From: a virus
Taxonomy: Duplodnaviria > Caudoviricetes
Direction: 5' to 3' (one strand)
DNA length: 40,746 nt
IMG/VR virus record: IMGVR_UViG_3300027811_000012
Span: 1 to 40,746 of that record
Shown: positions 2,646 through 40,746 of the stretch, in pieces
Layout of the letters: each line of letters starts with the position of its first letter
Position numbering within the stretch: position 1 is the first letter of the stretch
Made by a program: the position numbers and the translations under genes
The notes under the pieces: model-generated
What the model saw: only the letters and a program-made list of their open reading frames with translations
Databases searched by the model: none
What the model was told of the DNA's origin: nothing

Positions 2646-3128
2646 GTGTGTTTGATGTTAGGTGGTAAGCAGGTGCATATAGCGCAGATGGAACGGGAAG
2701 AAATAGCTGCTGGAATCCTCCAGGATGAACCACAGACAGCCATTGCGCGAAGGTTAGGGGTTCATCCTCTGACAGTGGCCAGACACCTAAAAAGCGACGT
2801 AGAACTAAGGTCCATTATAGACAGAGGATTCAAAGAATTATCAGGCAGCTATAGCAAGGCTATTGATAATATAAAGTATGTAATAGAAGAGTATCAAGCT
2901 CCTATAGAGGGGAAGGTTACTAAGTTAGATGTTCAGAAGAGAGATCATGGATATAGTGCGTCTATTAAAATGTTGGAGAGTATGGGTCTTACCCCCTCAA
3001 ACTCGCAGCCTCAATATATTACCAATTTAATGCAAGTTAACAACTACATAAGCCCCGTAGTAGATAAAGTGCTAGATAGTATGATAATGGGTGTAATAGA
3101 TAATGAGGTTGATAAAGTTGATAAATAA
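2646..3128 (+). CDS. terS: Putative terminase small subunit (N-terminal HTH)
   Basis: HTH pattern PQTAIARRLGVHPLTVARHL; immediately upstream of terL. Confidence 0.65.
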   Translation: MCLMLGGKQVHIAQMEREEIAAGILQDEPQTAIARRLGVHPLTVARHLKSDVELRSIIDRGFKELSGSYSKAIDNIKYVIEEYQAPIEGKVTKLDVQKRDHGYSASIKMLESMGLTPSNSQPQYITNLMQVNNYISPVVDKVLDSMIMGVIDNEVDKVDK

Positions 3129-11661: not shown

Positions 11662-12696
11662 ATGAGTCGTTTTGTATTTTCAGACGTTGCAAGAGATGGA
11701 AATGGAGTCGTATGTCAATCGGCTACAGCAACCGTCTATCTTGCTGGAACAACGACCTTAGCCAACGTGTATGTGGCCTCTTCCGGTGGTGCTCAGGTCA
11801 ATAGTGTAACCACTAGCGCAACGGATGGGTCGTATTCGTTCTTTGTCGATCAGGCAGACTATGACGGTACTCAGAATTTCAAAGTTACGGTATCTCTCAC
11901 TGGATTTACGGCCTTTACGCTTGACAATATTGTGATTCAGGGTTTGCCGTTTGCTACGATAAGCCCGACCACGGCAAATATCACCACGGCAAATATCACC
12001 ACGGCAAATATCACCACGGCAAATATCACCACGGCGGCGATTACTACAGCAACGGGGAACCCGAACTTTACGGGGAACCCTACGTTTACAGCATCTACTA
12101 TTACAACGGCGAACCTTACCACAATTTCAAAAACAGGAGCAGGGATTGTTTCTAATCTTAATTCACAATACATAGCAGATGCGGGAAATGGAAATGCCGC
12201 GATAGCAGCAAATTCAACACCTACTTTAACAACTATACCAATAAGAAACGCCAATAAAGATTTGCTGGATAGAAATTCTGACCCGTTGTACGGAATATCA
12301 GGAGTTAGTGCATCGGGGGTACTTACATACGTTGCGTCGAGTAATTCTGCCTCGGTCGATCTTGACATGGGGACAGTGACGGCAGGAGATATAATTTACG
12401 TGTCTACGATGTCTTCCATTTCTTTCACCACGGCTGCTGTAGGTTACGTTAACATTGGGAAAAATTCGGGTACAGCAAGCGTGTCAAACGGGGGGAATAC
12501 GGTCAGTCCTCGGTCTCACTTTATAACAGTTCCTGGTGGCGTTTCGGATGCCACACCGGCAACGCATTACTTTGGAGTGTATCTATTTGTTACTGCCAGT
12601 GGAACATTGCATCTGTTTGGCGCAATTAACGAACATATCGCAACAGTTACAGGCAATCAAATTGTTATCTCGGCGTTCTTTTTAAAGAAACAGTGA
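11662..12696 (+). CDS. Tail fibre/spike protein
   Basis: N-terminal 'DGNG....ATATVYLAGTTTLANVY...TDGSYSFFV' attachment-type domain, TTANI stalk repeats, C-terminal jelly-roll-like tip. Confidence 0.7.
   Translation: MSRFVFSDVARDGNGVVCQSATATVYLAGTTTLANVYVASSGGAQVNSVTTSATDGSYSFFVDQADYDGTQNFKVTVSLTGFTAFTLDNIVIQGLPFATISPTTANITTANITTANITTANITTAAITTATGNPNFTGNPTFTASTITTANLTTISKTGAGIVSNLNSQYIADAGNGNAAIAANSTPTLTTIPIRNANKDLLDRNSDPLYGISGVSASGVLTYVASSNSASVDLDMGTVTAGDIIYVSTMSSISFTTAAVGYVNIGKNSGTASVSNGGNTVSPRSHFITVPGGVSDATPATHYFGVYLFVTASGTLHLFGAINEHIATVTGNQIVISAFFLKKQ
11968..12035 (+). repeat. 15-bp perfect tandem repeat accacggcaaatatc x4.5 (TTANI)
   Basis: Directly visible. Confidence 0.95.
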
Positions 12697-29920: not shown

Positions 29921-30170
29921 GAGGCGTCACCCAAATATACTTTACCAATTTATAAGCAAAGATGCGTTTCTTTGAATAAGTCATACCCTTATAAATTGCT
30001 TTACTTACTGTATAGTATGACATTGAGTAGAATAGCATATTTCGTAAGTCATTTACATCGGAATGAACAGCCATTGAATTAGTGTGATGCTGAATCTGCT
30101 GTCCCGTCTTTTCACCTGTCTTTAAATATCGGTACAGCTTATAAAGTCTTGGGCTTAACAGTGACTTCAT
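29910..30170 (-). CDS. Putative winged-HTH protein
   Basis: 'LYRYLK....TGQQI......AVHSDVNDLR' pattern. Confidence 0.5.
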   Translation of the reverse strand: MKSLLSPRLYKLYRYLKTGEKTGQQIQHHTNSMAVHSDVNDLRNMLFYSMSYYTVSKAIYKGMTYSKKRIFAYKLVKYIWVTPHAT

Positions 30171-30330
30171 CCTTAACCTCCTCAAAATGACAACAATAAG
30201 AATAACTACTATGCTGATCGTCTATTTGAATAAATCTTATAATTACATCCCTCTTTAGACAACAACCATTTTCTACATGTATACATGGTGCGGAACAGTG
30301 AACTACGGTACCTGAGTATATATTATTCAT
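30139..30330 (-). CDS. Hypothetical Cys-rich protein adjoining the solitary attC
   Basis: AAGGAGG RBS directly after the attC R'' on the minus strand. Confidence 0.6.
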   Translation of the reverse strand: MNNIYSGTVVHCSAPCIHVENGCCLKRDVIIRFIQIDDQHSSYSYCCHFEEVKDEVTVKPKTL

Positions 30331-30340
30331 ATGGCCTCCT

Positions 30341-30398
30341 TTCCAACCAGACGGTCCAGCGGGACGCGAAAACCGCGCCCCTGACCTGGACGTTATGC
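30341..30398 (+). mobile_element. Solitary attC site (58 bp)
   Basis: TTCCAAC cagac ggt[c]cag[c]ggg[a]cgcg aaaac cgcg ccc ctg acc tggac GTTATGC: perfect stem with three extrahelical bases. Confidence 0.85.
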
Positions 30399-30560
30399 GC
30401 GACTCCACGGAACAAATTTTTCCCCAATAAAATTAGGATACCACAAATGCTTATTGCCACACTTGCATCGTGACTTTCTCACTCTGCGTCCGCAATTAAT
30501 ACAGAAGAGTACAGTTTTACGTCTCACAGGAGTATATTCATTTTGTCTTCGTAATCTCAT
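30393..30560 (-). CDS. Small Zn-finger protein (55 aa); stop codon lies in the attC R'
   Basis: Own translation MRLRRQNEY...FCINCGRRVRKSRCKCGNK... Confidence 0.55.
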   Translation of the reverse strand: MRLRRQNEYTPVRRKTVLFCINCGRRVRKSRCKCGNKHLWYPNFIGEKFVPWSRA

Positions 30561-30664
30561 ATTTCCCCAAATATTTTCGGTTATTTATTGTTGGAGAGTT
30601 TCGCCACTCTCCCGGATTTTCACTATCACCGTAGGGTCCGTGCCTGGCAGCGTTTTATTGTGAA

Positions 30665-30756
30665 TGGCGGCTCGGTGGTTTTGCGTGTATTTTGCATTCG
30701 CCGTCTTCTGCGTAACATTTTCAGCAGACCGCACCGATAGTTAATGGACACCGCCA
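30665..30756. ncRNA. Candidate structured RNA element
   Basis: Nested complementarity tggcgg/ccgcca, tcggtg/caccga, tctgc/gcaga in an intergenic stretch. Confidence 0.3.
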
Positions 30757-31573: not shown

Positions 31574-32114
31574 TGTTTATCCCTTTTGGCTGTTCGTCTT
31601 TTTCTATCGTCTTCTTAAACATGTGCCCCTGTGCCGTGTGAAAAATAACAATCCCTTCTGGGCGCATAAATCCTGGCGCGGCAACGCTCCCATGATTCTT
31701 TAATTCGTTTAGCGATTCTTCCACAAGGTCAGTTGTGAAAACCCCGCGAGCAATTAGTGGAACTATAGAGCAACAAGCAGGGCGTACTGAATCATCGTCC
31801 CACCTATGAACGTTGAAAAGAGAAAACCGCTTTTCTCCATTCACAAGTCCATACCCGCGCTGTATCCCACTCCCCCACCATTCCCCAAAGTGAGAACCTG
31901 GCCCAAGTTTCATAAGCTCATCCTTGTTTGTCAACGCCCAAAGCATGAATCCGTGATTATCGCCAGTCTCAGGGGTAAGCCAGCGCGTTCGGCTCCCAAT
32001 CTGGAAACTTCCATCTTCCCCTATGCAGATACACCCATTAGTACCATCAATTTTTTCAGTAACCACAATTGCACGAGACAACCTTGCGATTTTAGGAAAC
32101 TCTATAAAATTCAT
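31560..32114 (-). CDS. RNA ligase (Rnl2-like nucleotidyltransferase domain)
   Basis: Motif I TEKIDGTN, 'GSRTR', 'FGEWWG.GIQ', 'EGIVI', 'FKK'. Confidence 0.88.
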   Translation of the reverse strand: MNFIEFPKIARLSRAIVVTEKIDGTNGCICIGEDGSFQIGSRTRWLTPETGDNHGFMLWALTNKDELMKLGPGSHFGEWWGSGIQRGYGLVNGEKRFSLFNVHRWDDDSVRPACCSIVPLIARGVFTTDLVEESLNELKNHGSVAAPGFMRPEGIVIFHTAQGHMFKKTIEKDEQPKGINNANS

Positions 32115-32611
32115 AAATCCCCCTCCTGTAATTTAAAAAACTTCCCACAAGTCCTGCACCTTTCATAACATTCCGTTTCATCATGGGGACAATCAACTTC
32201 AGTCTGTTTACCATACAATCTTTTAATCTCATCTTCCATATCCTTAGTATCTGGAAGAGCTGAAATCTCTACAAGGGATTGTATAATATCAGCAGCTTCT
32301 TGTACGGGTCTGGACTTAATCGCAGGGATAGCTTTACAAATAGACTTTACGGGTATGTTAGCTAAATAAGGAAACTGTGCAACTGACTTATAAAGGTAAT
32401 TGTAATAATCCATCATTTCGTAAGCTGTACTTCTTGGAATTTTAACGTCTTTTATTACTGAGTTAAAGTTGTTGTATCCTGCTTTCTTGTAGGCTTTATT
32501 GATATTCAACGTCCATAAAAGCTCTCCTATGGTTGCGTAGCTTAAATGAGTACCGTTGTTATAGTGTTTTACTGCTTGTTCTATTAAGGCTTTTATTTCT
32601 ACAAGTTCCAT
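32111..32611 (-). CDS. Hypothetical protein (HTH-like middle, C-terminal CRTC)
   Basis: AAGGAG RBS; 'YKKAGYNNF......KIPRSTAYEMM'. Confidence 0.65.
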   Translation of the reverse strand: MELVEIKALIEQAVKHYNNGTHLSYATIGELLWTLNINKAYKKAGYNNFNSVIKDVKIPRSTAYEMMDYYNYLYKSVAQFPYLANIPVKSICKAIPAIKSRPVQEAADIIQSLVEISALPDTKDMEDEIKRLYGKQTEVDCPHDETECYERCRTCGKFFKLQEGDL

Positions 32612-32663: not shown

Positions 32664-32701
32664 GTTAAGACGCCATTATGGCGGTGTAATGAATGTTGTG
32701 A
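32664..32701 (+). other. attI-like site A
   Basis: gttaagacgccattatggcggtgtaatgaatG|TTGTGA; gapless 23/34 match to 37629-37662. Confidence 0.7.
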
Positions 32702-32929
32702 CTATATGCACTTCATCCCTAATTTCAACATTGCGATTTCTCGGTTTTTACGCTCCAAAATAAGGCGGACAAGTGATGCCGGGGGCGTGCCTAATGGCCC
32801 ATGTTCTTCAACCATGCCATCAGACAGATCAAGCTCATTCACTACATCTTCAAGCATGTTTTTATATAAGGCGCATTTATCCAAAAGTTTTGAAATTTCG
32901 ACATCTTTTGCGTCTGGGCTTCTGTTCAT
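32702..32929 (-). CDS. Cassette A1 gene, hypothetical (75 aa)
   Basis: AGGAAGG RBS before ATG 32929; bounded by G|TTGTGAC and GCCACAAC. Confidence 0.75.
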   Translation of the reverse strand: MNRSPDAKDVEISKLLDKCALYKNMLEDVVNELDLSDGMVEEHGPLGTPPASLVRLILERKNREIAMLKLGMKCI

Positions 32930-32952
32930 CGCATTCCTTCCTGACGCGATGG

Positions 32953-33009
32953 CCACAACCATTGCGTCCACTGCGACACGCCTTGCGGCGCGTGACCGCC
33001 GCGTTATTT
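32953..33009 (+). mobile_element. attC A1 (57 bp)
   Basis: CCACAAC cattg cgt[c]cac[t]gcg...cgcgtgacc gccgc GTTATTT. Confidence 0.85.
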
Positions 33010-33159
33010 TCTCTCAGCAAAAAATGCCACTATCGAAAGCACTGTGAATATTATCGCTCCAGAAAATCCGATGATTTTCTCCCAACGTTTTTTTGCAAAA
33101 CCTGCGGCCTGTGAAAATATCATTGACAGCATCATAAAAAGAAACAGTTTGTCGGCCAT
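33004..33159 (-). CDS. Cassette A2 gene, small 2-TM membrane protein (51 aa)
   Basis: GGAGG RBS; two hydrophobic stretches; stop in R'. Confidence 0.7.
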   Translation of the reverse strand: MADKLFLFMMLSMIFSQAAGFAKKRWEKIIGFSGAIIFTVLSIVAFFAERK

Positions 33160-33171
33160 TTCATCCTCCGA

Positions 33172-33228
33172 AAATAACCATAATTTCGACAACGACACGC
33201 TTCGCGGCGTGTCAGATTGTCGTTAGTT
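33172..33228 (+). mobile_element. attC A2 (57 bp)
   Basis: AAATAAC cataa ttt[c]gaca ... tgtcaga ttgtc GTTAGTT. Confidence 0.88.
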
Positions 33229-33456
33229 TTCTATCTTGCCCTCAACTTGTGGCACTGCATCACGGTGAAAAATATTATCTGGTACTTCAAATTCCACCGT
33301 CACCACAGCACGTTCTCGGTCCCGGCTCAAATACTCAGGACCGAAGTGTTCTCGGTTAAATACCTCGCAGTGCTCGTGCATTTCTCCAATCCACTGCGAA
33401 CAGACGATTGCGGAACCGTATCCTTTTGATACAACCAAATGCGCTTTAACTTTCAT
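33223..33456 (-). CDS. Cassette A3 gene, hypothetical (77 aa)
   Basis: GGAGG RBS; stop in R'. Confidence 0.75.
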   Translation of the reverse strand: MKVKAHLVVSKGYGSAIVCSQWIGEMHEHCEVFNREHFGPEYLSRDRERAVVTVEFEVPDNIFHRDAVPQVEGKIEN

Positions 33457-33469
33457 CCCGACCTCCGAA

Positions 33470-33558
33470 AACTAACCAGCGGTTCGTGTCCGACCGCGAC
33501 GGCGCTGGTCGCTTATGTTCGTTATTCTGTGGCGCGGCGGTACACCCGCACGTTATCA
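33470..33558 (+). mobile_element. attC A3 (89 bp)
   Basis: AACTAAC cagcg gtt[c]gtg[t]ccg[a]ccgc ... gcggcggtacacc cgcac GTTATCA. Confidence 0.82.
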
Positions 33559-33876
33559 TTTCAAACCACTCAATGTTTTCTCGTATCGCTCTGTGCATTT
33601 GCAAAATGCAGAATTGATTGCGTCCTTTTTCTCTTTGAAATAATATCTTCCCGGACTGCCAATGATCTCCGTGCCGTTTTGGAAGTGCATACCTGATCTC
33701 GGGATGGATAAAACATACCCACCGGCAGGCCACTCTGAAATTACATGAGATTGCAGGTGTGCTATGATTTCCAGTAGCCGGTTTATATCTCGCATCTTCA
33801 CGGCAGGCCATCCGTCGTGGAAATGGTCATTGTTTAACAATTCCATGCGATTTATAAAATCCTGTTCGCTCTCCAA
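33556..33876 (-). CDS. Hypothetical phage protein
   Basis: GGAGG RBS before TTG 33876. Confidence 0.65.
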   Translation of the reverse strand: MESEQDFINRMELLNNDHFHDGWPAVKMRDINRLLEIIAHLQSHVISEWPAGGYVLSIPRSGMHFQNGTEIIGSPGRYYFKEKKDAINSAFCKCTERYEKTLSGLK

Positions 33877-33895
33877 ATTGCCACCTCCAATAAAG

Positions 33896-34366
33896 TTATT
33901 TAATATACTCCAAAAATTGTTTAAACTTAGGGTATTCATTTTGCAACTTTTCATGTAACTCTTTTCTCGCTAACTGTTTATTAATAATACTATCATCGTT
34001 AAGGATTTGTGAAATGCCTCTAAAAAGTTTCCCTCCGCATTCCATCACTTCATTGCTTGGTTGAAATTTAGGCTTAACATAATGATCTTCTACTCTATTA
34101 ATCTTATCAAGGTAATCAAAGACTCCATTTAGTTTACCTGAATACTCACCTAATTTGTCAAGTTTCCACTTAGGGTATTTTGATAATCTCTGCACCCAAA
34201 GTTTGGTTTCGCTTTCCCCTAGCGTCTCCCTGGTGAATGTTTCCAGGTAAACTATTATTGAGGCCACATATTCCCGCAATTCTTGTTCTTCGTTCATCTT
34301 CACGCTCGGCAGCGAAGTTTCTTCCTCTTCCGGCTCTCCCGATGCTCTGCTCTTGTAATCCTTCAT
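33896..34366 (-). CDS. Hypothetical protein, possibly helicase-loader-like (replication module)
   Basis: GGAGG RBS; follows initiator-like domain. Confidence 0.6.
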   Translation of the reverse strand: MKDYKSRASGEPEEEETSLPSVKMNEEQELREYVASIIVYLETFTRETLGESETKLWVQRLSKYPKWKLDKLGEYSGKLNGVFDYLDKINRVEDHYVKPKFQPSNEVMECGGKLFRGISQILNDDSIINKQLARKELHEKLQNEYPKFKQFLEYIK

Positions 34367-34598
34367 TTATTACCTCCGGTTCTACCCATTCCTTCCACAA
34401 TCCATCAGGGTAGTCTTTAGATTTAAAAAACCTTATCGGGTCTACAGGCCATTCTTGTCTTTTTGCGTAATTCTCAGTAGCGGTAAGGCAAAGGTTTTGG
34501 TCGCTTTCACTCAACTTGTCGAATAGTTTCTTACATTGCCCCTTGCCTATTTTCTTACCATTACGGGCAGGGTATAGTTTCCAGAACTGAATAAACAT
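34170..34598 (-). CDS. Replication-initiator C-terminal-like domain protein
   Basis: 'FIQFWKLYP...GKKIGK....K.F.KL......C..A..NY.......DPIRFF' pattern; AAGGAG RBS. Confidence 0.65.
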   Translation of the reverse strand: MFIQFWKLYPARNGKKIGKGQCKKLFDKLSESDQNLCLTATENYAKRQEWPVDPIRFFKSKDYPDGLWKEWVEPEVINEGLQEQSIGRAGRGRNFAAEREDERRTRIAGICGLNNSLPGNIHQGDARGKRNQTLGAEIIKIP

Positions 34599-34647
34599 AT
34601 TAGCTCCTTATGTTTTCGATATAGTAAGTTACCCTCAGTATCTCCTT

Positions 34648-34863
34648 TCACGCGATTCGCCAACACCGCAAGCCTTTATCCGTATTGCGGACAGAAAATT
34701 TCATACTATTTCTTGTGCCAAAGTAACTTGCGGCGGAAGCAATTTTACGTTCATCTTGGACTTCAACAAGAAACGAATCGCCTATGTTCATTTTGTTAAA
34801 AGGGTATTTGCTAGTATATGCCTTCGATTCCACAAACGGGATATTTTTATCAATTTTTATCAT
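34648..34863 (-). CDS. Small phage DNA-binding-like protein
   Basis: 'KIDKNIP......KYPFNKMNIGDSF ... GLRCWRIA' family pattern. Confidence 0.7.
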   Translation of the reverse strand: MIKIDKNIPFVESKAYTSKYPFNKMNIGDSFLVEVQDERKIASAASYFGTRNSMKFSVRNTDKGLRCWRIA

Positions 34864-34876
34864 TTTGCATCCTCCT

Positions 34877-35065
34877 TTACGGTACTAAATCACACAATTC
34901 ATCACAATCAGTACAAATCATATCAGGGTAATGACACACCTCAAAACACTTATTTCTTTTATTCCACTCTACGGGTACTTCTTTTTCCGCTCCACAAGTA
35001 GGGCATTTGTAATTATAAAAGTCTCCCTCTTGGAGTCCTTCGTTTATGAAGTCTGATTTATCCAT
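34877..35065 (-). CDS. Zn-ribbon protein
   Basis: CPTC ... CTDC. Confidence 0.6.
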   Translation of the reverse strand: MDKSDFINEGLQEGDFYNYKCPTCGAEKEVPVEWNKRNKCFEVCHYPDMICTDCDELCDLVP

Positions 35066-35960
35066 TATATTCTCCTATTACTTCTACTTTTCTGCATCGA
35101 ACTTTTTCTATACTTTCATGGTATACGACAAAATCATCTTTATGCACTCGGCAAGTAAGAATTTTTCCTATGTTGAATTTTTGAGTCATAAACGGTAGTG
35201 GGCTAAGATGCAGGCCGCCTCCACATTTCCGATCTTCTGATGGGTCAAAATCAGGGCAAGTGACCATCCCTTCATATTTTATTTTACCTGTTTTGAAATC
35301 GCATCGGGTATTTGAATTTACTGATTTATATAGATATACAAACCCTTTATCATCAGGGATAAAAGTATTCAAAAATGATTCTTTCGTGTGTTTCTGCGCA
35401 ATAGTATTTACTAATGTTGCATGGCCAGAAATAATAATTTTAGGGCTACAATCTTGGAGGATAATTACTGCACGACCTGATGCGGCCCCTGTTACGCTGT
35501 CACTTAATATTTTCACCGTGGCATTGCCGGAGACATACTGCACCGTGGCATTGTCAAAGACAGACTGCACCGTGGCATTGTCGGAGACATACTTCACCGT
35601 GGCATTGCCGGAGACAGACTGCACCGTGGCATTGCCGGAGACATACTGCACCGTGGCATTGCCGGAGACAGACTGCACCGTGGCATTGCCGGAGACATAC
35701 TGCACCGTGGCATTGCCGGAGACAGACTGCACCGTGGCATTGCCGGAGACAGACTGCACCGTGGCATTGTCGGAGACATACTGCACCGTGGCATTGTCGG
35801 AGACATACTTCACCGTGGCATTGCCGGAGACAGAATATAAGCCATTTTTGACATTTCTACTTAACCTATAAATATTACCTTTAATGATGATAGCTATTTG
35901 TTCTTTAAAATCTGTTAATTTATCCAATTCTTCTTGGGTGGTAATAATTATTTCATTCAT
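35058..35960 (-). CDS. Nonapeptide-repeat (beta-solenoid) protein with C-terminal 'CGGGLH' domain
   Basis: VSGNATVQY/S repeats; 'YKSV', 'CGGGLHL', 'KVRCRKVEV' motifs. Confidence 0.8.
   Translation of the reverse strand: MNEIIITTQEELDKLTDFKEQIAIIIKGNIYRLSRNVKNGLYSVSGNATVKYVSDNATVQYVSDNATVQSVSGNATVQSVSGNATVQYVSGNATVQSVSGNATVQYVSGNATVQSVSGNATVKYVSDNATVQSVFDNATVQYVSGNATVKILSDSVTGAASGRAVIILQDCSPKIIISGHATLVNTIAQKHTKESFLNTFIPDDKGFVYLYKSVNSNTRCDFKTGKIKYEGMVTCPDFDPSEDRKCGGGLHLSPLPFMTQKFNIGKILTCRVHKDDFVVYHESIEKVRCRKVEVIGEYNG
35514..35832. repeat. 27-bp tandem repeat, ~12 copies
   Basis: caccgtggcattgYcggagacaKactK units. Confidence 0.95.
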
Positions 35961-36215
35961 TTTCAATACTCCCCCTTCCCATTATCTGCCTCCATGTTAT
36001 GATATTCTACGATATTGTTTCGCTGTTTTAATGCTCATTGGTTCCAACATTGAAGCAGGAATTTCGTTTATATTTGGCTTATTACATTCGTCGCAAAGAT
36101 ACCCTTGTATAGTAGTTCCTTTTTTTATCTCATTCCACTTCTGTATTGGTTTGTCCTTTAAGTGGACGCAAACTATTACCCATCCATCCATTTCAATACT
36201 CCCCCTTCCCATTAT
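35961..36215. repeat. 25-bp exact direct repeat (35961-35985, 36191-36215) flanking one gene
   Basis: tttcaatactcccccttcccattat seen twice. Confidence 0.9.
35997..36191 (-). CDS. Hypothetical protein (64 aa) between the direct repeats
   Basis: ATG 36191 with RBS in the repeat; CxH...CDEC. Confidence 0.6.
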   Translation of the reverse strand: MDGWVIVCVHLKDKPIQKWNEIKKGTTIQGYLCDECNKPNINEIPASMLEPMSIKTAKQYRRIS

Positions 36216-36390
36216 AATAATGTGCTATTAAAGCCAGTGTACTAAACTTAGGGTCTGAATCTCCATCATAAATTCGATACAAGGTAGCTCTATGTATCCC
36301 TGTAGCGTTTGAAATTTCCCTAAGTAAGCCTTTTTTAACGTCTCTTTTGAAAAGTTTCATTAAGTCTTTTTTGTAAAGTTCAAGATTCAT
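36193..36390 (-). CDS. XRE/Cro-family HTH regulator
   Basis: 'LREISNATGIHRATLYRIYDG.SDPKFSTLALIA'. Confidence 0.85.
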   Translation of the reverse strand: MNLELYKKDLMKLFKRDVKKGLLREISNATGIHRATLYRIYDGDSDPKFSTLALIAHYYNGKGEY

Positions 36391-36414
36391 TTTGCTCCTT
36401 CCGAGATGCACAGA

Positions 36415-36609
36415 TTATACCGTAATATCCTTGTGAATTATCATCTTATTCCCAGTAACTAAATCAGTTTCAATTGTTGGATTGCACCAACAGGCTGCGG
36501 AGTCAGTGTTGTGTTCAGGCATATAAGCTATAAATTGTCCGCAGTTCGGAGCGCATTCAACGTTCTTGTAATGTTTCGCGGGACATTTTTTATTTAAGCA
36601 TCTGCTCAT
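36415..36609 (-). CDS. Cys/His-rich hypothetical protein
   Basis: AAGGAG RBS; 'H....ACWCNP.......IIH'. Confidence 0.65.
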   Translation of the reverse strand: MSRCLNKKCPAKHYKNVECAPNCGQFIAYMPEHNTDSAACWCNPTIETDLVTGNKMIIHKDITV

Positions 36610-36629
36610 ATTATTTCTCCTTTCAGTCG

Positions 36630-36842
36630 CTACTTAACTGAACGTTGCATTTCTTCCCTTGCTTGCTTAATGTACTTGTCGCGCCATCCAATAGATGACA
36701 TGTACCCAGCCTGTGCAGTCTGGAATATTCGCATACACGCTAAATCAAGAGCATATGAATAGATTTCAATGGAACAATACGGGCACGGTTCTGTGCCCTC
36801 AATAGTATCGTAGTTGTGAGTTTTGCAAACAAAGTCCGGCAT
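36630..36842 (-). CDS. Hypothetical protein
   Basis: AAGGAGGAG RBS; CKTH...CPYC. Confidence 0.65.
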   Translation of the reverse strand: MPDFVCKTHNYDTIEGTEPCPYCSIEIYSYALDLACMRIFQTAQAGYMSSIGWRDKYIKQAREEMQRSVK

Positions 36843-36852
36843 GCTCTCCTCC

Positions 36853-37614
36853 TTAACTCACCTTCTTTTTTAGTTTCCAGTATTTCAATAAACATAAAAA
36901 CATTTCCCAAGCTCTCAAAAGCTCTTCTTCTGTGTATTCTTTTATGTAAACTTCTTTTGTTGTGGTTGAAATGTAGACGTTGTAACATTTTGCTTTTTCA
37001 TTACCAAACCCTACTCTATAAGCGGCCAATTGTACGCAGTTGTCATCGTGGTCACGCTTTTTCATCTCTTCTAATCCTTGCGCGGTGGTCTTTAGGTCAA
37101 TGATTATTCCTGGTACTTGTAAATCTATCTTTCCTCCAAAACCCAAAGGATGTGCGAAAGACTGCTCACAATTCCAACTTTGGGACCCGTACTTATCGTA
37201 AATCGCAGTACAAGCCGCCGTTACATATTCTTCATGCTCTGTAGGCTTTACGCCTTCGTAGGCTCCTTGAATAGCGGCATGTATTTCAGTACCTAACTCA
37301 GCCGCGTCCGCTCCTGCTTTTTTACTATCTAAAATTATCCTTGCAATGTATTCGTCTTCCGGTTCATTTATAGCCCTTGGTAAAGTAAGCGCGGCCAAAA
37401 GAACCTGCTTCATTTTATAAAAAGTAAGCCACTCTTTAGCGGCCATGTTTTTAATTGCGCTTACGCTTGGGACTAAATCAAGTTTTCTTGCGTCTGCAAG
37501 GGTAGTATCTCGTTCTTTCCCATTTTTACCTATTACGGTATAAACAGGACGGCCTTGACGGTCGTACCAATGAGTACTCTGACTTGGTCTTATTATGTTT
37601 ATTTTGTTATCCAT
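36853..37614 (-). CDS. PD-(D/E)XK exonuclease (phage, Cas4-like)
   Basis: 'HWYDRQG', 'PSVSAI', 'GTEIH', 'GGKIDL....IIDLKT', 'QLAAY'. Confidence 0.88.
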   Translation of the reverse strand: MDNKINIIRPSQSTHWYDRQGRPVYTVIGKNGKERDTTLADARKLDLVPSVSAIKNMAAKEWLTFYKMKQVLLAALTLPRAINEPEDEYIARIILDSKKAGADAAELGTEIHAAIQGAYEGVKPTEHEEYVTAACTAIYDKYGSQSWNCEQSFAHPLGFGGKIDLQVPGIIIDLKTTAQGLEEMKKRDHDDNCVQLAAYRVGFGNEKAKCYNVYISTTTKEVYIKEYTEEELLRAWEMFLCLLKYWKLKKKVS

Positions 37615-37628
37615 GTCAACCTTTCGGA

Positions 37629-37666
37629 GTTATACAGCCATCTTGGCGTTCTAATAGTTGTTGGGG
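37629..37666 (+). other. attI-like site B
   Basis: gttatacagccatcttggcgttctaatagttG|TTGGGG; matches site A. Confidence 0.7.
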
Positions 37667-37670
37667 CGTA

Positions 37671-37985
37671 TCACTTCGCCGTCAGAAATTGCGCTGCTAT
37701 CGGAAGAGCTTCGACGCTCGGATCAGTGTCCTCTTTCGGAGTCCACGGCCCGCCTTGTGGCCCGTTTGCTACCTCTGAAAAATTCAGCCTTCTCGGTTTT
37801 CCGGGGTCCGGTCCGAGAACGGGAATCCAATTTGCCCGAATGCTTTCCGCTATCGCCGGGTTTTGTGCCTCAACGAATCTCGCCATATACTCTCGGCAGG
37901 CCAGCAATCCCGCCCGAAAATATACGCGGTGAACGTCATTTTGTAACGAGGATTGCGCTTCCTCTACTGCTGTTCGATTGTTCAT
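37671..37985 (-). CDS. Cassette B1 gene, hypothetical (104 aa)
   Basis: GGAGG RBS before ATG 37985; visibly more GC-rich than flanking phage genes. Confidence 0.75.
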   Translation of the reverse strand: MNNRTAVEEAQSSLQNDVHRVYFRAGLLACREYMARFVEAQNPAIAESIRANWIPVLGPDPGKPRRLNFSEVANGPQGGPWTPKEDTDPSVEALPIAAQFLTAK

Positions 37986-38017
37986 ATCGCCTCCAATGAA
38001 GAAAAAAATTAGAACCC

Positions 38018-38074
38018 GCCCAACCAACGTATCGACGGGCCGCAAGACCCGCGCCCGTCATCCGGGCGTTAGTC
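38018..38074 (+). mobile_element. attC B1 (57 bp)
   Basis: GCCCAAC caacg tat[c]gacg ggc[c]gc ... gcgcc cgtcatc cgggc GTTAGTC. Confidence 0.88.
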
Positions 38075-38281
38075 CGTCAAAATCGTAATTGCCGGTGCTG
38101 CTTCTCTTATTTCGATGATGGTTTCCTGCCCCGCTTCACGAACAAGATCAAGAGCGGTCCATACCCGTTCGATTGTCTCTGCCGCAAAATAGCGCGTTGT
38201 CCGGCGTATTTCGGTAGTGGTTGTCCCAGGTTCTTTTTTCGTTTCTCCGTCATGCTCTGATACGACTATAAATATTTTCAC
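38069..38281 (-). CDS. Cassette B2 gene, hypothetical (70 aa)
   Basis: AAGGA RBS, GTG start; stop in R'. Confidence 0.72.
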   Translation of the reverse strand: MKIFIVVSEHDGETKKEPGTTTTEIRRTTRYFAAETIERVWTALDLVREAGQETIIEIREAAPAITILTD

Positions 38282-38302
38282 TGTTTTCCTTTCGACCCGA
38301 CG

Positions 38303-38358
38303 GACTAACCATCGCGGCGTGTCCGACCGCTACGCGGCGGTACACGCGGGCGTTAAAA
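38303..38358 (+). mobile_element. attC B2 (56 bp)
   Basis: GACTAAC catcg cgg[c]gtg[t]ccg[a]ccgc tac gcggcggtacacg cgggc GTTAAAA. Confidence 0.85.
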
Positions 38359-38370
38359 TCACTCTATACC

Positions 38371-38553
38371 CTACTCTTGCGCTACCGTGATCGTGAGTCG
38401 CTTTTTCAAACCATATTCTGGCGGTCTATCCGCTCTTGCCCATGCTACAATTTCTCCGACAGGCGTACTCTCGCTGAATATTTTGGTTTCCTGCCATGCT
38501 TCGCCAACAGTTTCATTTCCGGTGCTCATGTCTTTAATGGCTACGATTTGCAT
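38371..38553 (-). CDS. Cassette B3 gene, hypothetical (60 aa)
   Basis: AAGGGA RBS before ATG 38553. Confidence 0.7.
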   Translation of the reverse strand: MQIVAIKDMSTGNETVGEAWQETKIFSESTPVGEIVAWARADRPPEYGLKKRLTITVAQE

Positions 38554-38576
38554 GTATCCCTTTCCGAACGACTGGA

Positions 38577-38624
38577 TTTCAACCAATCGTTCGACCCGTT
38601 GAACGGGTCAACTCAGCGTTATAA
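38577..38624 (+). mobile_element. attC B3 (48 bp, very short)
   Basis: TTTCAAC caatc gtt[c]gacc cgttgaacg ggtcaac tcagc GTTATAA: perfect L''/L' pairing. Confidence 0.88.
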
Positions 38625-38942
38625 TTTTTCTAATGCAATACGTGCCGTGTCTTGCGCCTTACCTGAACCGTATTCGTAAATTTCGGAAAGTGCTTCCCTC
38701 ATCATTTTTGATTTCTGAAAGTTGCACTTTATCCGATCAACACATTGTGCCCCATCTGCACCGACAAGATTGTAAATTTCCACGAGCCGATCAAGCCGTG
38801 AAAAAATCCAGGCGTGTTCAGCCTCGTGAAACTTCATTTCAGCAATAACAGTATCAAGTGTTTCAAGCTTACCTGTGGTCGCAGCGCAAACGTGCTGCAA
38901 TCGTTCGGCTATGTCTATTGCGCGTTTTAGGTTCGTTTCCAT
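38619..38942 (-). CDS. Cassette B4 gene, hypothetical helical protein (107 aa)
   Basis: GAGGTG RBS; stop in R'; C-terminal 'MREALSEI......ARIAL' typical of small phage proteins. Confidence 0.75.
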   Translation of the reverse strand: METNLKRAIDIAERLQHVCAATTGKLETLDTVIAEMKFHEAEHAWIFSRLDRLVEIYNLVGADGAQCVDRIKCNFQKSKMMREALSEIYEYGSGKAQDTARIALEKL

Positions 38943-38958: not shown

Positions 38959-39006
38959 TTATAACCAGCCGTCCGAGCGGTCAAGCCGCTCAACTAAGTG
39001 TTACGC
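38959..39006 (+). mobile_element. attC B4 (48 bp, very short)
   Basis: TTATAAC cagcc gtc[c]gagc ggtcaagcc gctcaac taagt GTTACGC. Confidence 0.85.
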
Positions 39007-39663
39007 CCTATCTAACTCATTTATCAACATATTAGCATCATTTTCGCTTAACTTATTGATAAACACATCCCCACTATTATGGTCATTTGGTATCACTATA
39101 CCAAAATTACCACAGTATTCGATAATATCCCTGTTGGTAAACTTTTTAGCTGAAAACTTACCTTTTAGGATAGTTTCGAGTACGGGTCTTAGGTGGTATT
39201 CTGCGGGGGGATTTGGGGCCTGTATAGGCTCTGCGGGTATTTTATCCAATTCCAGGATAGGGAGAAGCCGCTTATAGGCCACCTCTACTAGGTCCAGTAC
39301 GGCCTCAAATGACCCAGGAACCTGAACCGTGACGTAGGTATTAGCCAAACGTTCCGCATAGCTTAAAATGTAGCTCTTCTGCGATAAGACGAACCCTTCC
39401 TTGGTATCCGCAAACTTGGCCACAAATGGCTTTTTGCCGCCTCCTGAGTACCCACCTGCCGCCTCCGAAAGCTTCATCCTGGGGGGATATTTGGGGTCTT
39501 TTGACGGCGTCACCTCAAACTGCACCTTTTGTCCTATTTTGCTTAATATAGAAGGGGCAAAACACTGGTATTGCACCCCATCAGCCACTACATTATGTAC
39601 TGATACTTCTGGGTTATTACCAAACTTATGTGAAAATACAGCACTATTTATCGTCGCTTCCAT
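39001..39663 (-). CDS. Putative ssDNA-binding/recombination protein
   Basis: OB-like N-terminus, G-rich linker; would be adjacent to the exonuclease if array B were removed. Confidence 0.5.
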   Translation of the reverse strand: MEATINSAVFSHKFGNNPEVSVHNVVADGVQYQCFAPSILSKIGQKVQFEVTPSKDPKYPPRMKLSEAAGGYSGGGKKPFVAKFADTKEGFVLSQKSYILSYAERLANTYVTVQVPGSFEAVLDLVEVAYKRLLPILELDKIPAEPIQAPNPPAEYHLRPVLETILKGKFSAKKFTNRDIIEYCGNFGIVIPNDHNSGDVFINKLSENDANMLINELDRA

Positions 39664-39754: not shown

Positions 39755-40746
39755 CTAGCTAGTCCATTCTGGTAGTTGTGACAATATTTCCAATTCCTGC
39801 TTGGCAGATATATCAGCAAGTGCGTCGCGCTCGATAATGCCAACTATCCATGCCCTAGCATGTAATGCTTTTTTTGCTTCTGGTGGAACAGCTTTAGCGT
39901 AAAAAACTCCGGGTATAGACGCATGTTCAAACCATAAATATTGTCTGTTAATATTATTTCCTATGGTCATTTTTTTTAATGAATAAACCAGCCCGGTTTT
40001 GGGGTCGCTGCCGTTGTCTATTGTTTCGGCATTAGTGGCTTTTAATAATCGTTCAGCACCGATTTTTCTTATTATTTCTCTTTGCACATCTGCGTTTTTC
40101 TCGTCTAATGCCAACTGAGGGTTTATTTTTTCTGATGGTGTCATTACAAGCCATTCGGGAACCCGTATTCCGTTCAGGTGGTAAATTTTGAAACCATCCC
40201 TCCATAAATGAGACGGGCCTGTATTGCAATGGGGTCGATTATGCGAATCTACCCGTATTTCCAATGGGAAATCAGATACTATGCAGAATTTTTCGTGCAT
40301 TACCCTGAACCCGCCCTCTTGTGCGCATGATTCCCACGCACTATATTTATCCCAACAATCCAAACCAGTGAGCTTAAGCACATCTCTCATACACTCGTAA
40401 TATGAGCATATAGACGGCCACATGTTGCCTCCATGATATACATGGTTCCATCTACGGCAACAGTCTGTTAATAACCTAGACATGTTCGGAGCAAAATGTT
40501 TTGCTAAATTGCATAGCCAGTCTGTTGCCGCGTCTGTTGCCGAGATTATTGCCGCGTATGTTGCCGCGCGTGTTGCATCGTCTGTTGCCGCGCGTGTTGC
40601 CGCGTCTGTTGCCGCGTCTGTTGCCGAGATTGTTGCATCGTATGTTGCCGCGTCTGTTGCCGCGTATGTTGCCGCGTCTGTTGCCTCGTCTGTTGCCGCG
40701 TCTGTTGCCTCGTCTGTTGCCGCGTCTGTTGCCGAGATTGTTGCCG
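39755..40746 (-). CDS. Partial ORF (start outside window): ATDA-repeat protein with DUF6745-like C-terminal domain
   Basis: Frame stays open upstream of ATG 40483 to the window end (…ATDAATDWLCNLAKHFAPNM…); 'HCNTGP...WRDG.KIYHLNGIRVP' and 'EKNADVQREIIRKIGAER' motifs. Confidence 0.75.
   Translation of the reverse strand, partial: ATISATDAATDEATDAATDEATDAATYAATDAATYDATISATDAATDAATRAATDDATRAATYAAIISATDAATDWLCNLAKHFAPNMSRLLTDCCRRWNHVYHGGNMWPSICSYYECMRDVLKLTGLDCWDKYSAWESCAQEGGFRVMHEKFCIVSDFPLEIRVDSHNRPHCNTGPSHLWRDGFKIYHLNGIRVPEWLVMTPSEKINPQLALDEKNADVQREIIRKIGAERLLKATNAETIDNGSDPKTGLVYSLKKMTIGNNINRQYLWFEHASIPGVFYAKAVPPEAKKALHARAWIVGIIERDALADISAKQELEILSQLPEWTS
40520..40746. repeat. 12-bp degenerate coding tandem repeat (gtctgttgccgc; encodes AATD/ATYA/ATIS variants)
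   Basis: Directly visible; window ends inside it. Confidence 0.92.

Follow-up and report, generated by a model that had tools for sequence, protein, structure and literature searches.

We analysed the complete IMG/VR record IMGVR_UViG_3300027811_000012 (40,746 nt; hereafter, the window) and found that two related 34-bp sequences, each heading an array of integron gene cassettes, likely represent the attI of one phage-borne branch of the integron integrase IntI, and the likely points of cassette insertion. As this record encodes no such enzyme, the integrase would probably come from a different phage or prophage that shares the cell. On sequence comparison, we place this reading at roughly 80%; that a window site is an attI is in itself very probable, and its continued use in trans is given slightly better than even odds. 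The original prediction had described a dedicated phage attI present twice, and the comparative evidence below supports that description: the motif is linked to cassette arrays and to one phage IntI clade, not to host integrons.

The window record is linear and rated 79% complete. It derives from a tailed soil phage with SU10-type portal and adaptor, capsid, endolysin and holin genes on the + strand, and with NinG, RNA ligase, exonuclease and helix-turn-helix (HTH) genes on the - strand. The two sites are organized as follows, with scores from the non-circular matrix described below:

32664-32697, + strand: attI-like site 1; DR1-like box 32665-32675, inverted L-like box 32679-32689, 6-bp overlap 32690-32695, crossover G|TT at 32695/32696; 34.1 bits, rank 1 in the window.
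37629-37662, + strand: attI-like site 2; DR1-like box 37630-37640, L-like box 37644-37654, overlap 37655-37660, crossover 37660/37661; 31.1 bits, rank 2; 15/26 identical to the DR1-L segment of attI1.

The claimed gap-free match between the two (23/34) was reproduced, with the coordinates and sequences as given; GTT-anchored 31-mer pairs agreeing at 20 or more of 31 positions numbered 15 among 961,191 in the window, tandem repeats excluded. Each copy stops at the G|TT that opens a chain of cassettes, three from 32695 and four from 37660, and both chains close with a complete attC, with no further matching R'' box within 2.5 kb. Each site comprises two back-to-back 11-bp boxes, TTA-N4-GCCA (8/11 alike within each window site), followed by the 6-bp overlap and G|TT. 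The GCCA/TGGC palindrome noted earlier is present, but its extent had been drawn too short, the full form TTA-N4-GCCA-N3-TGGC-N4-TAA spanning 25 bp. We interpret it as a predicted integrase-binding pair, DR1 plus L, rather than an operator. At both sites, an R box with the G|TT crossover heads a cassette array, an inverted L box (TAA invariant or nearly so) forms a simple site with R, and an accessory direct repeat, DR1, lies at the same offset as in attI1. The overlap falls within the 6-8 bp given for tyrosine recombinases (PMC4792948). None of the 11 mutual mismatches falls in the 10 columns that are invariant in an independent set of sites (about 0.4% by our arithmetic), suggesting selection on the sites. 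In addition, each site is closer to those of other phages (29/34 and 28/34) than to its twin, indicating that the pair is not a recent duplication.

When phage and metagenome contigs were scanned, a check proposed with the original prediction, the motif proved to be linked to attC arrays and, among relatives, to a neighbouring IntI from a single phage-borne clade. The strict pattern matched seven viral loci, and in five of them an IntI1 homologue starts about 30 nt to the left, pointing away. Genomes yielded 15 loci, three with intI and two with the motif and a ribosome-binding site (RBS) but without intI; the other ten were rejected as chance matches, since they lack intI and the seven checked begin no cassette chain. 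Metagenomes yielded 11 loci, two of them the window phage and three with intI. A relaxed pattern matched 41 viral loci: 12 beside intI, two in contig G008 without intI, the provirus L001 again, and one more site with a single cassette. The remaining 25 were set aside as chance: they score below 30 bits and lead into no chain, and of those looked at, several fall within open reading frames (ORFs). All seven integrases scanned exceeded the TIGR02249 cut-off (293-311 bits vs 265), and the clade shows the features of integron integrases, namely the TIGR02249 match, the insertion domain and the R-K-H-R-H-Y residues with their established roles.

The reverse search, by integrase homology, returned 34 viral loci, 31 of them with upstream DNA. 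The motif was present at 10 bits or more, 17-81 nt before intI, in 20 of the 31 (five on contigs that also supplied training sites), in a weak form in two, and in none of nine loci with distant integrases; four prophage-like genome loci also carried it before intI. An adjacent cognate intI is found at 24 related loci and is lacking in the window record. In a tree of 41 rows, with three fragments left out, all 24 motif-bearing integrases fell inside a single clade of 27 (support 100/100), the remaining members being the two weak-motif cases and one integrase without upstream DNA; the motif was found in none of the 14 rows outside the clade. A non-circular matrix, built from nine sites that were found via integrase homology only and do not match the window-derived pattern, ranked the two window sites first and second, followed by their reverse-strand shadows at 11.1 and 9.8 bits and the next position at 7.7. 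In the relatives, the motif lies just before intI within the phage early/replication operon, and in ten annotated viral loci intI stands among cII-like, replication initiator or primase, terminase and portal genes. No cultured phage carried an IntI of this clade (nine records, best 39.7%).

Comparison with host chromosomal integrons, another check proposed earlier, pointed the same way, the motif being found at none of 29 host-type IntI loci (best 12.7 bits). This control comprised the 29 top-scoring chromosomal-type IntI among 401 genomes of one phylum, some with less than 300 nt upstream. IntI matches were obtained in 144 of the 401 genomes, and only the prophage of the centre genome reached the clade range (662 bits; others at most 345; clade 369-670). 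The detectable cassettes at host-type loci were four in sense and one unclear. Geobacteraceae and their relatives carry sedentary chromosomal integrons (L107, L109, L167-L195) that have similar attC sites and occur in the same genomes as prophage-type integrons. The three included in the tree (L107-L109) group in a clade of their own, the motif is absent from all of these integrons, and their cassette genes are mostly in sense.

The phage sites resemble attI1 of class 1 integrons (R388) in the DR1-like GTTA box, the L box with its terminal TAA at an identical 23-nt offset, the G|TT crossover and the placement beside the 5' end of an intI that points away; the DR1 box of attI1 is named in PMC3146285 and the L box in PMC12901181. 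Identity over DR1-L is 13/26 for site 1, against the 15/26 of site 2. Sliding the motifs along R388 by plain identity failed to single out attI1, and only the matrix ranked it high (58 of 67,720 positions). The phage sites differ from attI1 in that DR1 and L form a near-perfect inverted pair, the site lies 17-81 nt from intI, the cassette genes are antisense and the whole is placed inside a phage operon.

The arrays behind the two sites contain the following attC sites and cassette ORFs:

32702-32929, - strand: cassette 1 ORF, 75 aa, antisense to attC; an overlapping longer ORF has no Pfam or PHROG match.
32953-33009, + strand: attC 1, top strand +.
33004-33159, - strand: cassette 2 ORF, 51 aa, hydrophobic.
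33172-33228, + strand: attC 2.
33223-33456, - strand: cassette 3 ORF, 77 aa.
33470-33558, + strand: attC 3, distal end of array 1; its R' box is overlapped by the stop codon of the upstream gene.
37671-37985, - strand: cassette 4 ORF, 104 aa; 151 nt at 100% in sequencing run X3.
38018-38074, + strand: attC 4; 48/49 identical to an attC of the integrase-bearing phage locus L071.
38069-38281, - strand: cassette 5 ORF, 70 aa.
38303-38358, + strand: attC 5.
38371-38553, - strand: cassette 6 ORF, 60 aa.
38577-38624, + strand: attC 6.
38619-38942, - strand: cassette 7 ORF, 107 aa.
38959-39006, + strand: attC 7, closing array 2 distally; the TAA of the gene at 39001-39663 coincides with the TTA of the R' box.
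30341-30398, + strand: solo attC, without matching left core or attI motif; possibly a decayed third array.

The attC sites and chains were called with our own detector, not IntegronFinder. As in attC arrays, all seven cassettes are bounded by R''/R' inverted repeats, R'' complementing the preceding core with 0-1 mismatch, and the folded bottom strand has an extrahelical G. All eight window attC have C at position 9 with + as the top strand, in agreement with the array polarity that had been assumed, and in six of them the L boxes pair well, the L'-R' spacer being 5 nt. The RBS lies on the attC bottom strand in 7/7 cassettes and on the top strand in 0/7. Since the same detector assigns the top strand to the gene strand in R388 and in Shewanella phage M16-3, the strand call in the window is not an artefact. 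Among 60 cassettes chained behind the motif in 32 related loci, 49 were antisense, one was sense and ten were unclear; this count includes near-duplicate loci and perhaps a few false chain steps. Seven loci gave no chain: in four a matching R'' was seen on inspection, and the others were masked, too short and uninspected (one each). Chains from random GTT numbered 0 of 204. The earlier statement that neither site is an attC also stands, because on the motif matrix the right arms of attC sites score between -15 and -36 bits, far below the two sites (about +39). An antisense 63-aa ORF lies to the left of the solo attC, a possible eroded R'' was seen near 30711, and the region 30139-30750 is likely a decayed third array.

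The genes next to the arrays are also on the - strand:

32111-32611, - strand: 166-aa gene, beginning 53 nt from site 1.
36853-37614, - strand: PD-(D/E)XK exonuclease, beginning 15 nt from site 2, in the position of intI in relatives.
39001-39663, - strand: 220-aa phage gene upstream of array 2, with no family in the Atlas search.

It had been proposed that transcription runs towards the sites, so that new cassettes would be added at the promoter-distal end. The gene strand, the RBS placement and a cI gene upstream of the array in one relative (L075) fit this geometry, but no promoter was identified in the window. A Pc promoter reading from attI into sense cassettes does not fit, the RBS all being on the bottom strand. 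Terminator matches did not exceed those in shuffled sequences and did not include the sites, and Rfam gave no match. An 11/12 sigma-70 match at 37592-37619 on the - strand overlaps the exonuclease start codon, just past site 2.

We next consider the integrase. No PF00589 recombinase was detected in the 79%-complete record, and a clade-specific hidden Markov model found none in six frames. Lacking both intI and a Pc-to-sense-cassette layout, the window does not hold a complete integron; formally, it holds two clusters of attC sites lacking integrases (CALINs), with attI. The same layout was found in G008, a 74,876-nt contig with terminal repeats and contractile-tail genes, which has no protein match to the window phage and no tyrosine recombinase. 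It carries exactly two sites (C1:21580-24268 and 36865-38850; L148 and L152), and all seven attC calls lie directly behind them. Because G008 is unrelated to the window phage, the integrase-less two-site layout appears to have arisen twice. A further candidate, L047/L048, was excluded as the same phage as the window. The provirus L001 has a site but no TIGR02249 match. Its site (3001-3034) lies between the terminase large subunit and a PAPS-reductase-like cassette, and more copies without adjacent intI were noted in L005 (3001-3035), L013 and L017 (3001-3034) and L056; L013 and L017 share upstream sequence, although they come from two differently labelled archaeal bins.

In the mechanism that we propose, IntI would bind the DR1-like and L-like boxes, and folded attC bottom strands would be inserted at G|TT by attC x attI recombination. 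Use in trans by an IntI of the clade is preferred because attI sites are recognised by their cognate integrases (PMC4792948). A leftward phage transcript would run the length of the array, cross attI and enter the phage gene beyond it, leaving the newest cassette promoter-distal, and only cassettes co-oriented with the operon would be retained. Recombination between the two attI sites could delete the native genes between them. Such attI x attI reactions are described as 3-4 orders rarer than those with attC (PMC4792948), and near-complete excision is described for identical attI1 pairs (PMC12901181), which may favour divergence of the two sites.

Several observations weigh against this interpretation. 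The promoter scan of the window gave 32 matches vs 25.8 +/- 5.5 in shuffles. The overlap is 6 bp, against 7 bp in attI1 and in Shewanella attI; it is 6 bp in most clade members and 7 bp in five clade loci, and a search with the 7-bp pattern returned solely the contig of L090. A core-free pattern matched 21 loci, 14 of which have neither a GTT in register nor intI. Contigs from three runs, which drop rare forms, showed no joint that skips a cassette, and no empty site was present in any locus or contig examined. G008 is rated just 77% complete despite its terminal repeats, and a 47,112-nt contig of the window phage holds about 6.3 kb that lay outside the integrase search.

With the record 79% complete and these 6.3 kb outside the search, intI could be encoded in cis. 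The strongest alternative, though we consider it unlikely, accepts the sites as attI and places intI in the unsequenced part of the genome, or assumes its recent loss, the arrays being frozen relics. The probably decayed third site at 30341-30398 attests to erosion, and one G008 site lies about 1 kb upstream of a replication initiator, the position of intI in relatives. However, both window sites score as high as intI-linked ones, their mismatches spare the invariant columns, and G008 has terminal repeats and no integrase. The near-identity of attC 4 to an attC in the intI phage L071 also speaks against this alternative.

Somewhat less probable is that a single array was split, the block 33553-37660 having entered at attC 3 as an attI-bearing circle, or that the two arrays came from different donor phages. 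In favour of this reading, each site is more similar to those of other phages than to its twin, and cassettes bounded by attI are described as excising and inserting with IntI1 (PMC12901181). A split would swap the right flanks of the two predicted empty sites. A gene stop codon lies on the R' box at both distal flanks, which is compatible with split and unsplit histories alike. No relative with the unsplit arrangement was found, against a split. A close relative with an empty site was not at hand, since the exonuclease relatives (four loci, 53-54% identical) had no motif and the search with the 633-aa virion gene gave one 31% partial match.

That the palindrome is a repressor operator, with cassettes dropped alongside by a host integrase at secondary sites of the attG type, is improbable. 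Its 25 bp lie just upstream of RBS, the phage encodes HTH proteins (36193-36411 and 2646-3128), and the 14 core-free matches without GTT would suit an operator. On the other hand, the motif keeps a fixed register to G|TT, is strictly linked to one IntI clade across unrelated phages and has the box spacing of DR1-L in attI1. The attG sites of Loot et al. (bioRxiv 2022.09.11.507474) are likewise double-stranded cassette targets away from the intI gene, but their consensus is only GWT plus a right-side motif, short flanking motifs sufficing, whereas the arrays described here have several cassettes each and begin at a conserved left arm of 34 bp. A perfectly palindromic motif-like intergenic site in a Selenomonas genome (L020, 3001-3041), with neither intI nor a cassette, is possibly an operator.

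Slightly less credible still is the capture of a host chromosomal attI, as in Shewanella phage M16-3, which carries phage attC arrays and two host-type attI, one without adjacent integrase (PMC9892861). The attC families shared with Geobacteraceae chromosomal arrays would agree with such capture. In M16-3, however, it is the top strand of attC that carries the cassette genes, and the IntI is 37% identical to the clade. Moreover, the motif is missing from all 29 host-type IntI loci, where the detectable cassettes are in sense (four, with one unclear), in genomes of one phylum that may not be that of the host. A decayed attC or a terminator hairpin is scarcely credible: the TAA-spacer-GTT end resembles an attC right arm, but the stem is just 4-5 bp, both an extrahelical base and an R'' partner are missing, true attC arms fall below -15 bits, the sites are absent from the terminator and Rfam matches, and the linkage to intI largely refutes both.

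Cassette exchange is suggested by contigs of the likely source sample, in which minor forms run from attC 6 into another cassette (depth 3.9 vs 16.8; 7.2 vs 21.5). In a run from a second study, segments of cassettes 4 and 6 were present (99-100% identity) but little of the backbone, and attC 1 and attC 2 were found with other flanks; all of these contigs may belong to other genomes.

Outside class 1, little is said to be known of attI sites, which IntegronFinder does not detect (PMC9024848). A scorable attI consensus is now matched to a defined integrase clade, making cognate IntI-attI recognition, the role of DR1 and the 6-bp overlap testable. Phage CALINs would then not all be host debris, some having docking sites kept for a purpose. 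The reversed layout likely inverts the expression rule of integrons, with the newest cassette last, and places the integrase under phage lytic control; with the genes of this pool on the bottom strand of attC, one must also ask how such cassettes are created. As a tentative extension, to which we give somewhat less than even odds, phages may run an integron economy of their own, with a phage-only IntI clade, its own attI and a cassette pool of reverse polarity, in which integrase-less phages keep docks under selection in the early operon, to be loaded by the IntI of co-resident prophages. We found no literature on phage-specific attI or antisense phage cassettes, most subscription papers being outside the search; the main text of Qi et al. 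2023 (PMC9892861) describes neither, and its supplement lists further phage CALINs that may bear on novelty.

Further features were observed in the related loci. The cassette regions of L057, L064 and L071 contain several DNA methyltransferase genes, as Qi et al. noted for phage CALINs (PMC9892861). Cassettes 3 and 4 of L090 are an identical 547-nt tandem pair, a sign of recent integrase activity. Genes for tyrosine recombinases of about 200 aa lie upstream of the arrays in L058 (2619-3245) and L111 (7459-8040), besides intI and a phage integrase. A more perfectly palindromic variant of the motif, followed by a cassette, was present in L143 (4000-4033), L049 (1928-1961) and L146 (4000-4033), the IntI of L146 scoring 301 bits, below the clade range. 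A different layout, without the motif, was seen in virus Rctr41k (KX853513.1; L196, 4680-10101), where five attC calls lie 3' of an IntI-like gene on the same strand.

In the window itself, coding tandem repeats were found at 35514-35834 (27 nt), 40487-40746 (12 nt), 8-115 (12 nt) and 11953-12052 (15 nt), the 27-nt array differing by 81 nt in another assembly of the same phage. An exact 25-nt direct repeat (35961-35985 and 36191-36215) spans the RBS of two adjacent genes.

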